Positions 234-5,439 of a DNA stretch of 5,439 nt are shown piece after piece (positions within the stretch are counted from its first letter, which is position 1; the number at the start of each line of letters is the position of its first letter). Origin of the DNA: Escherichia coli (lineage in GTDB: Bacteria > Pseudomonadota > Gammaproteobacteria > Enterobacterales > Enterobacteriaceae); the NCBI RefSeq assembly GCF_003334785.1, contig NZ_QOWV01000044.1; one strand, 5' to 3'. Made by a program: the position numbers and the translations under genes. A model generated the notes under the pieces. The model made no database searches. It was not told where the DNA came from and worked only from the letters and a program-made list of their open reading frames with translations.

Positions 234-425
234 TTATTCTGTTTCTTCCCGGGGTTCGGGTTTGAATTTTCCCAGAAAGTTGTACATCGGTCGCATGCAG
301 GGATGCGGATAGCCGTCCCGCATAAACACCACCCGGGTTTCCTCAACACTGGTCACGGTGACAAGCGCACCATGATCGTCTTTGTATCGCTGATTGACTT
401 TCGGTAATGGAACATCTTCTGACAT
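234..425 (-). CDS. Small hypothetical protein, 63 aa; possibly DUF4222-like
   Basis: ORF with an ATG start at 425 and a TAA stop; an in-frame stop lies 8 codons upstream, so ATG is the only plausible start. No clear Shine-Dalgarno sequence. The translation (MSEDVPLPKVNQRYKDDHGALVTVTSVEETRVVFMRDGYPHPCMRPMYNFLGK...) is compositionally protein-like, with a YKDDHGALVTVT...RDGYPHPC pattern that I recall from small DUF4222-type proteins of enterobacterial islands and prophages. The family assignment is from memory only. The overlapping ORFs 50-349(-) and 132-407(+) are less protein-like. Confidence 0.5.
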   Translation of the reverse strand: MSEDVPLPKVNQRYKDDHGALVTVTSVEETRVVFMRDGYPHPCMRPMYNFLGKFKPEPREETE

Positions 426-1055
426 AAATTTTAGTACGGTAACAGTTAACTAAATTTTCATGTGGTAGCACTGAATCAGGAGACTGCGTTTCCTGATGTG
501 CGCTGTTAATTTTCTGTTTTTACGAAACATTTTCCCCTTCTTCCTGTGTATTTTATTGCGCTCCTCCTTTCATGTCCTTCCCATATCCTGAAACTCACTT
601 AAATGCTGTTGAATCGTCACGCATTGCAATTTTCAATGACTGAAATCAAAAATTGCTACTTTTTAGGCTAACCAACTGTATTAAAAGCATTCAGTGGAAT
701 AATTTTCTGCACTTTTCCATTAATTATGGTTATAAATTTTGCAATGTGCTGTTTTTGCGATATGTGACAGAATAAAGAACTGTTCATTTGTGCTATATCG
801 ATCGATAAATCTGTCATATTGCTGTAGTTCAGATCATTATTCTATAATGATCAAAAATAAGTCAGCTAAAAATTGGCAGATTTATTGCTCAGCATTCTGG
901 TACCGGTTGATGCGGGTAAATACCGGAAGGGCGGTAGCGTGCCATCGCAAAACATGGTGGGAGGTATCGTCAGGAGGCTGGTGATTGTTGGTATGACATG
1001 AATAAAAGGTTTTTCGTTTGACTGGAAAATTATGTTGCAGGAACGAGAGGGCTGA
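426..1055. promoter_or_regulatory. AT-rich non-coding region, likely promoter and silencing region
   Basis: Hand count of 661-780 gives about 30% G+C, against about 50% in a sampled stretch of the helicase gene (2281-2340). The only ORFs here (739-984 plus, 866-1102 minus) are Cys/Ser/Trp-rich and lack ribosome-binding sites. AT-rich tracts of this kind in horizontally acquired DNA are typical H-NS targets (established knowledge); binding is not shown by the sequence. Confidence 0.4.
819..848 (+). promoter_or_regulatory. Candidate sigma70-type promoter (-35 TTGCTG, 18-bp spacer, -10 TATAAT)
   Basis: Seen in sequence: TTGCTG at 819-824 and a perfect TATAAT at 843-848, oriented rightward toward the tpsB remnant and helicase gene. 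AT-rich DNA contains many chance promoter-like hexamers, so this is weak. Confidence 0.15.
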
Positions 1056-1517
1056 GGAACAAAGCTTATTCCGGCGCTGTCCGTCCTTGCTGTCACTGAC
1101 ACTGATGTCTGTTTTATTATCGCCTTTATCTCTTCAGGCCGCGGATATCAGCGCCAGCTGAGCAATACCCCGCTGACCCCACAGGAACAGTTTGCCATCG
1201 GTAACCGCTGGACGGTTCGTGGTTTTGACGGGGAGCGAACGCTGAATGCCAGTAACGGCTGGTATATCCGCAACGACCTGGCCTGGCGTACGCCACTGCC
1301 GGAGCAGGAGTTATATCTGGGAATGGATTACGGCGAGGTGGGGGGAGCCGGCAGTGAATACCTGGTGGGACGTCATCTGGCCGGTGGTGTTGTGGGGCTG
1401 AGGGGGCAACTGTTCAGTACGGATTATGACGTTTTCATCGGTCGTCCGTTTTCAAAACCGGCGGGTTTTATGACGAGTGATGTGACAGCCGGTTTTAATC
1501 TGTTCCGGGATTTCTGA
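1056..1517 (+). pseudogene. 3' remnant of an Omp85-superfamily two-partner-secretion transporter (TpsB; ShlB/FhaC/CdiB-like hemolysin-activator family)
   Basis: The reading frame is open from the stop at 1053-1055 to TGA at 1515-1517, but the first ATG is at 1323, with no credible start or signal peptide. The translation ...[59 protein letters not shown]...[25 protein letters not shown] contains the conserved (V/I)RG(F/Y) loop-L6 motif of Omp85/TpsB barrels (VRGF at 1215-1226) about 100 residues before a C-terminal aromatic residue (terminal F). Only about 150 codons are present; full-length TpsB proteins are about 550 aa. Confidence 0.6.
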
Positions 1518-1526
1518 GAAAATTTC

Positions 1527-3305
<1,779 letters not shown>

Positions 3306-3730
3306 TACCGGACCATTTTTTTATTCCGGACTTTCACCATACTGTTATTATCAGGTTTATTTAATTCACCATGAACCCATAATTTCACGATATTCAGATG
3401 CGTCTTTTTTATCTGAACCACTCTCCGCACTCCTGGCACTGGAATGTCAGATTCAGACCCCAGGAAGCCGTATATACTGGCAATGATACCTGTCATATAA
3501 TCATTACCTGTAATCAGTCAGGTTTTCATTTAACCAGGGACGGACAACGGCTGTTCACTGAGCGTTATATCAGAAACCTTAATGAGCTGTTACCTGTTCT
3601 GAAACGGCGGTGGGATGTGACGCCGGCAATTATCCGCGCGGTGGAATACCTTTCCCGGGTCCCGGTATCACACTGATGTTCTTTCCGTAACTGTTAATCA
3701 TGATTTAATACAGCAACACCGAATCTGCCG

Positions 3731-4804
3731 ATGACTTCTGAAGTGAAACTGAAAACCGGTGGTGACCCCCGGTCATTACCGGATTATGCTGCCCTGCGCG
3801 ATGAAATCAGCAAACTGACCCACCCGGCACGCCCGGATGTGGACTGGCGTTACGTGGAAACGCTCTGCCTGCGTCTGTATGAACACAATGGCGTGGAATT
3901 ACAGACGGCATCCTGGTACACCATCGCCCGGATGCATACAACAGGGTTAAGTGGCCTGAATGAAGGGCTGGCTCTGATTGTGGCGCTGACCCGGCATCAC
4001 TGGTCAGTGATGTGGCCGCTGAATACACACGCCCGGCTGGAAATTATTACCGGTCTGTTCAACCGTCTGCAAAAAACGCTCCGGGCCATGCCACCGGATG
4101 ACCGTGACAACCTGCCCCTGCTGTATCAGACCGAAACATTCCTGAAGGAACTGAGTGACACACTGGCCCGGTACGAACTTAAACAGAGCAGTAAAGTGGC
4201 TTTACCGGAAGCCATGGTGAAGGGATATATCACCCGTCTGGAAAATCAGCCGGTGCAGGGCGAAGCGTCGTCTCCGGTAACCCTTCCGGCTCAGGCACTC
4301 CGGTCTGATGCTCGGGACGTACAGGAACATCAGCCCCTGCCGCACTCCCGTCTGGTGTATGTTGTTTCTGAAACAAAAGCAGGGCCCACACCCTCCCTTC
4401 AAAAATCCCCTCCCACGTTTCTGAAACCGTTTGTGACTGGTGTCTGTGCGGCATTGCTGGCGGTCAGCGTGGCCATTCCGGGATGGCAGTATCTGACACA
4501 GCCATCACCGGCGGAGCAGCAACTCAGGGCGCTGCTGACACCACCACCGGATGTGCTTTCAGCAGACCAGATGACACAGCTCAGCAGAACACCCTCACTG
4601 TTAAATCATGCGTCAGAGTGGATAACCCTTTCCGGTCAGCAGATAACGCGACTGACAGAATTACCCCCGGCATATAACCTGCAGCGCAGTGCGCAGTTGC
4701 TGCAGCAACTGATGGTACTTTTCCCCGACAATCGTAAGCGTAAACTGACCGCCGTATGTAGCCATCAGACGAGAATTGGTAACTTAGACGCCCATCTGAT
4801 ATAG
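3731..4804 (+). CDS. Type VI secretion-associated ImpA_N-domain membrane protein (VasL/TssA-like); 3' end apparently replaced by IS66-family terminal sequence
   Basis: ORF of 357 aa. The N-terminal roughly 130 aa (GGDPRSLPDYAALRDEISKLTHPARPDVDWRYVETLCLRLYEHNGVELQTASWYTIARMHTTGLSGLNEGLALIVALTRHHWSVMWP) fit the ImpA N-terminal domain pattern of TssA/VasL proteins, as recalled. A single predicted transmembrane segment FLKPFVTGVCAALLAVSVAIPGW lies at about 4418-4486, consistent with VasL-like topology. The last 23 codons (from about 4733) are encoded by sequence starting with GTAAGCG, which I interpret as the IS66-family terminal inverted repeat, so the native C-terminus is probably lost. No strong Shine-Dalgarno sequence precedes the ATG. 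Confidence 0.55.
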   Translation: MTSEVKLKTGGDPRSLPDYAALRDEISKLTHPARPDVDWRYVETLCLRLYEHNGVELQTASWYTIARMHTTGLSGLNEGLALIVALTRHHWSVMWPLNTHARLEIITGLFNRLQKTLRAMPPDDRDNLPLLYQTETFLKELSDTLARYELKQSSKVALPEAMVKGYITRLENQPVQGEASSPVTLPAQALRSDARDVQEHQPLPHSRLVYVVSETKAGPTPSLQKSPPTFLKPFVTGVCAALLAVSVAIPGWQYLTQPSPAEQQLRALLTPPPDVLSADQMTQLSRTPSLLNHASEWITLSGQQITRLTELPPAYNLQRSAQLLQQLMVLFPDNRKRKLTAVCSHQTRIGNLDAHLI

Positions 4805-4818
4805 ACGGACATCTAAGT

Positions 4819-5244
4819 ATGGAATTACAGGACTGGCGAAAAGAACCTCGTAAAAACTATTCGAATGAATTCAAACTTCGTATGGTGGAACTGGCATCAC
4901 AACCTGGAGCTTGTGTTGCACAGATTGCACGTGAAAATGGCGTCAATGATAATGTTATTTTCAAATGGCTCAGGCTCTGGCAGAACGAAGGGCGTGTTTC
5001 GCGGCGTCTTCCGGTAACGACCTCTTCTGACACTGGCGTTGAATTATTACCTGTAGAAATAACGCCGGATGAGCAGAAAGAACCTGTGGCGGCCATTGCG
5101 CCGTCTTTATCCACTTCCACTCAGACCAGAGTCAGTGCCAGTTCCTGCAAGGTGGAATTCCGTCACGGTAACATGACGCTGGAAAATCCATCGCCAGAGC
5201 TGCTCACAGTGTTGATCCGTGAACTGACCGGGAGGGGAAGATGA
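4819..5244 (+). CDS. tnpA: IS66-family accessory protein OrfA (TnpA), 141 aa
   Basis: Translation MELQDWRKEPRKNYSNEFKLRMVELASQPGACVAQIARENGVNDNVIFKWLRLWQNEGR... matches my recollection of IS66/ISEc8-type orf1 proteins, which carry a helix-turn-helix-like N-terminal region. The stop overlaps the orfB start. Confidence 0.85.
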   Translation: MELQDWRKEPRKNYSNEFKLRMVELASQPGACVAQIARENGVNDNVIFKWLRLWQNEGRVSRRLPVTTSSDTGVELLPVEITPDEQKEPVAAIAPSLSTSTQTRVSASSCKVEFRHGNMTLENPSPELLTVLIRELTGRGR

Positions 5245-5439
5245 TCTCACTCCCATCAGGTACCCGTATCTGGCTCGTTGCCGGCGTTACCGATATGCGT
5301 AAATCCTTCAACGGACTGGGAGAACAGGTACAACATGTGCTGAATGATAATCCCTTCTCCGGTCACCCGGAGCAACACCTCCGCCCCTTCCGGGGTATCC
5401 TGCAGGCGGATGCGTTCACAGGTTACGACAGGTTGTTCA
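5241..5439 (+). CDS. tnpB: IS66-family OrfB (TnpB) N-terminus, partial at window edge; apparently fused in-frame to a transposase (TnpC)-like segment
   Basis: Translation MISLPSGTRIWLVAGVTDMRKSFNGLGEQVQHVLNDNPFSGH matches the IS66 orfB N-terminus as I recall it. The following residues PEQHLRPFRGILQADAFTGYDRLF do not match the expected continuation (LF.FRGRRGD...), and instead resemble the G.LQ.DGY.GY motif region of IS66 DDE transposases. The ORF is open to the window end. Confidence 0.6.
   Translation, partial: MISLPSGTRIWLVAGVTDMRKSFNGLGEQVQHVLNDNPFSGHPEQHLRPFRGILQADAFTGYDRLF

Follow-up and report, generated by a model that had tools for sequence, protein, structure and literature searches.

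A decayed class IV cdiBCAI locus in Escherichia coli and its probable control region, a sci1-type Fur/Dam promoter joined to an RfaH/ops leader

What is the role of an AT-rich block that contains no apparent gene and lies next to a broken one? Such a block is found in a 5,439-nucleotide stretch of Escherichia coli DNA (contig NZ_QOWV01000044.1 of assembly GCF_003334785.1), which is referred to below as the window. The block is very probably the control region of a class IV cdiBCAI locus which has since decayed. It is read here as a promoter of the sci1 type, with predicted control by Fur and Dam, followed by a leader carrying an ops element for RfaH. The features on which this reading is based are as follows (positions in the window; "no strand" where none applies):

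234-425, minus strand: DUF4222 gene, divergent; left boundary of the block
426-866, no strand: AT-rich promoter region, homologous in alignments to the sci1 (T6SS-1) promoter region of EAEC 042
626-656, no strand: 8-bp inverted repeat, arms GCAATTTT (626-633) and AAAATTGC (649-656), 15 nt between them
800-803, no strand: GATC-III (Dam site), upstream of the -35
819-848, plus strand: sigma-70 promoter, -35 TTGCTG (819-824), 18-nt spacer, -10 TATAAT (843-848)
832-835, no strand: GATC-II (Dam site), between the -35 and the -10
843-861, no strand: putative homologue of Fur box F1, TATAATGATCAAAAATAAG, overlapping the -10 and GATC-I
849-852, no strand: GATC-I (Dam site), inside Fur box F1
867-1017, plus strand: cdi-specific 5' leader, with no homology to the sci1 leader in alignments
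930-941, plus strand: ops element (RfaH loading site), GGCGGTAGCGTG, at the 3' end of a JUMPstart-like motif (890-941)
1018-1161, plus strand: N-terminal cdiB remnant (signal-peptide region), with possible starts TTG 1018, TTG 1087 and ATG 1105
1161-1517, plus strand: C-terminal cdiB remnant, 118 aa, in a different frame from the N-terminal piece

The original prediction, which had been made from the letters of the window, lacked the ops element, the cdiB pseudogene, the Fur box that overlaps the -10 and all three Dam sites.

The block differs clearly in composition from the genes behind it. G+C is 0.375 over 426-1055, 0.306 over 600-880 and 0.30 over 661-780, compared with 0.515 over 1160-5439; the value of about 30% that had been counted by hand for 661-780 is reproduced. 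No long ORF is present: the longest mechanical ORFs reach 81 aa (739-984, from a TTG) and 78 aa, which bears out the earlier view that the block holds no credible coding sequence. The divergent DUF4222 gene presumably has its own promoter within 426-600. Limits of 426 and 1055 had been assigned to the block. The features named do lie between them, but the right edge at 1055 does not hold: the non-coding leader runs to the start of the cdiB remnant, which is either TTG 1018 or TTG 1087/ATG 1105. Region 426-1055 matches 1,424 of 5,426 complete E. coli genomes; at least 80% of it is covered in 1,266, mostly at 95-99% identity. This promoter-plus-ops module is present in ~23% of complete E. coli genomes. 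The homology of other genomes to the window mostly stops at ~1150, which is a deletion junction.

The deletion can be read from the two cdiB pieces. The N-terminal remnant is identical to A41 CdiB up to ...LQAADI (window ~1018-1150); near 1150 the deletion junction introduces a stop that terminates this reading frame. The C-terminal remnant (encoded by window 1161-1514) agrees at 118 of 118 residues with residues 242-359 of A41 CdiB (359-aa query); in TW10722 it is annotated as a ShlB/FhaC/HecB pseudogene. The pieces match one protein in different frames and are therefore the product of an out-of-frame internal deletion. Neither cdiC nor cdiA is present in the window. A41, NC101 and STEC1590 carry the same upstream block followed by cdiB-cdiC-cdiA, annotated as frameshifted; the genes after the block in these strains are those for a ShlB/FhaC-family transporter and a toxin-activating lysine acyltransferase, and a gene of the filamentous-haemagglutinin type. 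The order cdiB-cdiC-cdiA defines class IV CDI loci (Halvorsen et al. 2021, PMC8510554). Such a locus comprises an intact cdiB, a cdiC encoding an acyltransferase of the TAAT family, cdiA and cdiI, in that order. This arrangement is not found in the window, which is classed as a remnant and not as a class IV member because it holds just two out-of-frame cdiB fragments.

The promoter had been predicted as a TATAAT at 843-848 with a TTGCTG -35 at 18-bp spacing, and both hexamers are present exactly there. It is judged real because of homology and conservation, and not because of the hexamers themselves: TATAAT occurs on either strand in 52% of dinucleotide shuffles of the block, and TTGCTG is a weak -35 that agrees with TTGACA at 3/6 positions, which is why the pair is missing from the output of the consensus promoter scan. 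The conservation alignment covers ten loci, seven of the cdi type and three of the tssB type. The -10 is invariant in all ten homologues aligned, and CTATAATGATCAAAATTAA, which takes in the -10, F1 and G1, is nearly invariant across them, even in a copy that is ~75% identical overall. Transcription is predicted to start near 855. A promoter-like site on the minus strand, at 578-550, was also given by the consensus scan.

The homology in question is to a promoter of the type VI secretion system of enteroaggregative E. coli (EAEC). [quoted passage not shown] 2011, PMC3145626). A follow-up from 2026 locates G2 in the interval from the -35 to the -10, puts both F2 and G3 on the upstream side of the -35, and reports that this architecture gives bistable ON/OFF expression (PMC13262931). 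Control by Fur and Dam has been demonstrated experimentally on the EAEC sci1 copy (PMC3145626, PMC13262931). EAEC 042 can be aligned with the window from 426 to ~866 at 62-100% identity per 40-nt window; homology is then lost, ~10 nt past the predicted start. The upstream neighbours (DUF4222, zinc-ribbon and Gp2 genes) are common to both. Other E. coli matches cover just 426-865, at 75-80% identity, and lie upstream of tssB.

The details of the core agree as well. The Fur site of EAEC 042, TATAATGATCAAAATTAAA, scores 13/19, as published, and TATAATGATCAAAAATAAG matches the Fur consensus at 12/19 positions. GATC-III, GATC-II and GATC-I are spaced by 32 and 17 nt, identical to EAEC 042, and overlap with CGATCG/ATCGAT, TCAGA and TGATCA, respectively. 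Among the homologues, G3 is lost in CFT073 only (GACC) and is kept in the window; G2 is lost in CRE1540 only. Because the three GATC sites with their 32/17 spacing and the Fur box over the -10 are retained, the TTGCTG/TATAAT pair is, on sequence grounds, a promoter of the sci1 type; its position agrees with that of the putative -35 and -10 of sci1 (PMC3145626). By analogy, we infer that Fur/Dam control carries over from EAEC to the copy in the window. The CFT073/042 Fur ChIP-exo supplements (Fur pan-regulon paper) hold no entry under c4518 or EC042_4524. The position of the junction, ~10 nt after the sci1 start, suggests that a T6SS promoter was joined to a cdi leader by recombination.

The leader beyond this junction (867-1017) is 88-100% identical in NC101 and ~97-98% identical in CFT073. 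It contains the sole ops of the window, GGCGGTAGCGTG, which conforms to the consensus GGCGGTAGnnTG and lies on the plus strand, i.e. the non-template (coding) strand; in shuffles of the whole window, the 8-mer core of ops is expected 0.08 times. The sole match in the Rfam scan is the JUMPstart motif (RF01707; 890-941, plus strand), scoring 21.3 bits where the gathering score is 35. Its 3' half is the perfect GGGCGGTAGCGTG and its 5' half is weak; the score falls below the gathering score because the spacing is 32 nt, compared with 18 in the model. The ops begins 82 nt beyond the end of the -10 (848) and ~75 nt beyond the predicted start, and it ends 77 nt ahead of TTG 1018 and 146 nt ahead of TTG 1087, within the untranslated leader.

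Variants of the element are found in homologues: ...GTA in STEC1590 and GPEC1176, ...CATG in NC101 and AGCGG... in A41. Conservation of ops is no proof of selection, as the cdi-type leaders (93-100% identical) conserve its flanks equally. With other ops leaders of CFT073 (c1882, tssH) this leader has just the ops motif GGGCGGTAGCGT in common. No ops-like core was found on the coding strand upstream of cdiB in any of 80 loci of CdiB relatives from other genera, including Erwinia, Pantoea, Photorhabdus, Providencia and Haemophilus. The ops leader thus appears, from these comparisons, to be specific to the E. coli lineage; the idea that ops is ancestral to class IV-like cdiB leaders was rejected, since it is missing from these 80 loci outside E. 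coli.

Direct data exist for a near-identical copy. Window 400-1150 is collinear with the region upstream of c4518 in uropathogenic E. coli (UPEC) CFT073, at ~98% column identity in the alignment. Hustmyer et al. (2022, PMC9765446) list c4518-c4511 as one of eight RfaH-bound loci. Its ops, GGCGGTAGCGTG at 4304090-4304101, is RfaH-bound in ChIP-seq (Data set S2) and is separated from the first gene by 157 nt; counting the same 157 nt onward from the beginning of the window's ops leads to TTG 1087. The ...GTA and ...CATG variants of ops are the RfaH-bound sites of c1882 and hlyC in CFT073 (PMC9765446). The region upstream of c4518 is H-NS-bound in the wild type in ChIP-seq and is silenced by H-NS/StpA, and the promoter is cryptic in rich medium. 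[quoted passage not shown] The gene is named there as "ShlB family hemolysin secretion protein", and the available part of the report makes no mention, for c4518, of CDI, of its identity as a cdiB remnant or of a Psci1-like promoter. By our comparison, c4518 of CFT073 is a cdiB remnant and not a haemolysin transporter.

These published data on the ~98%-identical homologue lend support to the idea of an H-NS-silenced cargo promoter, both in its claim that the neighbouring cargo is regulated from this block and in its claim of silencing by H-NS, which ChIP-seq shows for the homologue. Overall, the original prediction was supported as to regulatory region, promoter and H-NS; its inverted-repeat operator and its sRNA were not.

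The operator had been proposed from the repeat at 626-656, and as a description of the sequence this was accurate: the arms are exact reverse complements, 15 nt apart. That such a perfect 8-bp pair exists at this spacing, and that the intervening 15 nt are well conserved, could be taken to mean that a dimeric regulator of the cargo binds there. However, 32% of dinucleotide shuffles of the block yield at least one perfect 8-bp inverted repeat whose loop is no longer than 30 nt, so a regulator site fails the chance test. Related genomes, whose conservation of the repeat had been made the touchstone of the original prediction, mostly lack it: one arm is mutated without compensation in 7/9 aligned homologues (7784, STEC1590, GPEC1176, NC101, EAEC 042, 116333 and CRE1540), including 3/3 of the tssB-type copies. 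What is conserved is the spacer TTTCAATGACTGAAATCAA and not the arms, and the repeat lies ~200 nt upstream of the -35. An operator at this site is very unlikely, and it was rejected on the basis of the shuffles and the uncompensated arm mutations. It is hardly credible, too, that an sRNA missed by annotation, or a small protein like that of the 42-aa ORF at 873-1001, is encoded in the block, for all that PGAP annotates a 42-aa "hypothetical protein" there in CFT073, A41 and other strains. Rfam scans in E-value mode, run on the whole window and on 800-1100, gave no family besides the JUMPstart/ops motif; a consensus scan for promoters and terminators detected none of the latter in the block or leader, and the fold of the leader is unremarkable (z = -1.54). 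The sRNA reading was rejected on these three points. As to a protein, the 42-aa ORF spans the ops, which is RfaH-bound in the CFT073 homologue, and according to PMC9765446 RfaH binds ops in untranslated leaders only, with 0/22 ops-like sites on the non-template strand of coding regions bound. This argues against translation of the ORF, and the "hypothetical protein" with which many genomes are annotated at 873-1001 is probably spurious.

If the promoter-like hexamers and the inverted repeat are each to be expected by chance, and if the AT-rich composition suits binding by H-NS, then the block might be inert spacer DNA kept under H-NS. Against this stand a perfect 12-nt ops on the right strand and in the right place, base-by-base homology to a promoter that has been dissected experimentally, and sigma-70 and RfaH ChIP data for the CFT073 homologue (PMC9765446). 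An inert spacer is extremely improbable; both it and a small protein were rejected as explanations of the block.

As the control region of a class IV cdi locus, the block would operate at several levels. H-NS and StpA would bind the AT-rich DNA and silence initiation, as shown for the CFT073 homologue (PMC9765446). If EAEC is a guide, iron-Fur on F1 over the -10 would repress initiation, and Dam methylation of G1 and G3 may modulate Fur binding; together, Fur and Dam would decide whether sigma-70 polymerase starts at ~855. The polymerase would then pause at ops, ~75 nt downstream, exposing the element on the non-template strand, where RfaH would load (loading was shown for the CFT073 homologue, PMC9765446) and persist. 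Bound RfaH would suppress pausing and Rho- or H-NS-dependent termination along the long downstream operon and, going by general RfaH biology, probably helps a first gene that begins with UUG to be translated. In the window the operon has collapsed, and RfaH-modified transcription would read into the cdiB remnant and the genes behind it.

Because this operon is a wreck, the region is either a fossil or feeds the downstream genes. It is possible, with less than even chances, that the same regulatory region has become a functionless fossil, which persists because the deletion that removed cdiBCAI is recent. The destruction of cdiB and the loss of cdiC and cdiA fit this, as do the other genomes: most homologous loci are likewise decayed or IS-interrupted, and in strain 7784 (an O157:H7-like match) an IS3 element lies between the leader and cdiB. 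The promoter is also silent in wild-type CFT073 (PMC9765446). [quoted passage not shown] There are also intact-looking genes downstream, namely a NERD-UvrD helicase gene in the window (1527-3305) and those for KAP NTPase, QatC and QatD in CFT073. A tentative and rather unlikely reading goes further: class IV CDI would have been placed on a composite switch, with bistable initiation under Fur/Dam and elongation under RfaH, and the promoter would have been reused for defence-type genes after the locus decayed. The defence-type genes meant are the helicase gene of the window and the KAP NTPase gene, qatC and qatD of CFT073. RfaH drives synthesis of the LPS core, and the LPS core is the receptor of class IV CdiA.

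Read as the control region of a decayed class IV locus, the block is a regulatory region already known from characterised copies that are near-identical or homologous to it, and novelty is low. The understanding of RfaH or of Psci1 is unchanged; rather, two published stories are linked. The modest new point is that, judged by alignment, a Psci1-type Fur/Dam promoter and an RfaH/ops leader have been joined upstream of class IV cdiBCAI. Three regulatory layers would be stacked in one region (silencing by H-NS, initiation under Fur/Dam and elongation under RfaH). Such a region can also serve two different weapons used between bacteria, T6SS-1 and class IV CDI, which are exchanged at a point just after the start. 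Full-text literature searches returned no paper naming RfaH together with CDI, cdiBAI, cdiA or TPS, and what they returned for RfaH and hemagglutinin was irrelevant to a link between RfaH and CDI.

The system can be compared with four known ones. In the class IV cdiBCAI locus of STEC_O31, the probable initiation codon of cdiB is a UUG that precedes the annotated ATG by 18 nt (PMC8510554); the same layout is found in the window, at TTG 1087 and ATG 1105. Of that locus the window retains just two out-of-frame cdiB fragments. The work on STEC_O31 used cloned constructs, and the native promoter and leader are absent from that paper (PMC8510554).

The CFT073 c4518 region is the nearest relative. 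Its ops 12-mer is identical to that of the window and stands equally far ahead of the first gene. Both regions have the DUF4222 neighbour, the ShlB/POTRA remnant and, downstream, a remnant of the T6SS TssA/ImpA type (VasL in CFT073). The deletions have different end-points: in CFT073 the VasL remnant is joined directly to the N-terminus of cdiB and followed by the KAP NTPase gene, qatC and qatD, whereas the window has N- and C-terminal pieces of cdiB followed by the NERD-UvrD helicase gene.

Psci1 and the window have the -10, F1 with G1 inside it, G2 and G3 at identical spacing, and the window carries the same diagnostic restriction sites at its three GATC sites as those published (PMC3145626). 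They differ in the -35 (TTGAGA in Psci1, TTGCTG in the window), in the F1 score (13/19 and 12/19), in the leader, which is ~40 nt without ops in Psci1 and ~160-230 nt with ops in the window, and in the downstream gene, which is tssB (sciH) in the one and cdiB in the other.

Comparison with the classical RfaH targets concerns the leader. Classical RfaH/ops (JUMPstart) leaders precede the rfaQ, rfb/wzx, hlyCABD, kps and tra operons; to our knowledge, a two-partner-secretion/CDI operon is not a classical RfaH target. The upstream half of the classical JUMPstart is matched weakly in the window, where the spacing is 32 instead of 18 nt. In other respects the likeness is close. The ops of the window is identical to those of rfaQ, wzx and wza; as in the classical leaders, it is a 12-nt element on the non-template strand, in the 5' leader of a horizontally acquired operon, and the operon type to which it belongs shares with the classical targets the trait of being long, H-NS-bound and devoted to a cell-surface or toxin function.

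In the window, the remnant of cdiB, the first gene of the decayed class IV cdi operon, leads directly into a helicase gene, and the window also carries the remnant of one type VI secretion system (T6SS) gene and, at its ends, IS66-family sequences.

1527-3305, + strand: NERD + UvrD-type helicase, 592 aa, directly after the cdiB remnant
3731-4804, + strand: TssA/ImpA-like T6SS gene remnant (TIGR03362, E = 2e-23)
1-62 and 4819-5439: IS66-family sequences, at both ends of the window

The helicase is a full-length match to the PADLOC candidate defence model C3a187 'NERD+UvrD' (E = 7e-138). In strain TW10722, the cdiB remnant and the NERD-UvrD helicase gene are separated by cdiC and a GIY-YIG nuclease with a frameshift; the window therefore bears a further deletion relative to TW10722. 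The T6SS gene remnant and the IS66-family sequences are consistent with an island in which this promoter once preceded a T6SS cluster of the sci1 type.

Decay is also seen in other E. coli strains. The class IV loci of A41, NC101 and STEC1590 look complete, but all three share a common split in annotation: cdiB is annotated as a POTRA pseudogene and a ShlB ORF with an 18-nt overlap, and cdiA is in three pieces. This shared split suggests that a single allele, already decayed in an ancestor, is now widespread. Homology to the window ends at ~984 in strain 7784 and in hits H76-H83 from O157:H7 genomes. In 7784, the one genome of this group inspected, an IS3-family element lies at this point, between ops (the RfaH loading site) and the cdiB start, and its insertion separates the promoter and ops from cdiB.

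Other genes lie 3' of the cdiB remnant in CFT073 (4296883-4301442) and MS7163; these are a KAP-family NTPase gene, a hypothetical gene, qatC and qatD, all on the same strand as the remnant. The RfaH-bound span from c4518 to c4511 in CFT073, as reported in PMC9765446, takes in at least the KAP NTPase, the hypothetical gene and qatC, and an anti-phage system may therefore be transcribed from the RfaH-dependent promoter.

Three perfect ops 12-mers were found in the 601 kb scanned at loci with CdiB relatives in other genera, against ~0.07 expected by our own estimate.

Cedecea colo, 6125-6136 and 7325-7336, + strand: 12-mers identical to ops (GGCGGTAGCGTG), at the start of each cdiA-CT module
Pluralibacter MAG, 5122-5133, + strand: perfect ops 12-mer within the coding sequence of cdiC, where it is read in frame as GGSV

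The Cedecea colo locus has no full cdiA after cdiB-cdiC; two orphan-like cdiA-CT modules, one with a VENN motif and a C-terminal domain rich in Gly, are found in its place, each preceded on its 5' side by a repeated non-coding sequence. Three readings of the Cedecea colo 12-mer are possible: coding sequence (GGSV), a joint left by recombination, or a genuine site at which RfaH reloads.

The leader between ops and cdiB contains a short reading frame, which is identical in CFT073, A41 and NC101.

999-1022: 7-codon mini-ORF ATG AAT AAA AGG TTT TTC GTT TGA (MNKRFFV*), overlapping TTG 1018, just 5' of the cdiB signal-peptide region

Upstream of the promoter, alignment of cdi-type versus sci1-type copies reveals strongly conserved tracts at 629-735: TTTCAATGACTGAAATCAA, CTGTATTAAAAGCATTC, GGAATAATTTTCTGC and ATGGTTATAA. 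One of these may be the distal Fur box F2 of Psci1, the homologous sci1 T6SS promoter of enteroaggregative E. coli (EAEC). At the position of the third Dam site of Psci1, G3 (window 800-803), the alignment shows that CFT073 reads GACC instead of GATC. Loss of G3 might be one reason why c4518 is cryptic in CFT073, by analogy with Psci1 in EAEC, where G3 mutants are homogeneously OFF (PMC13262931).
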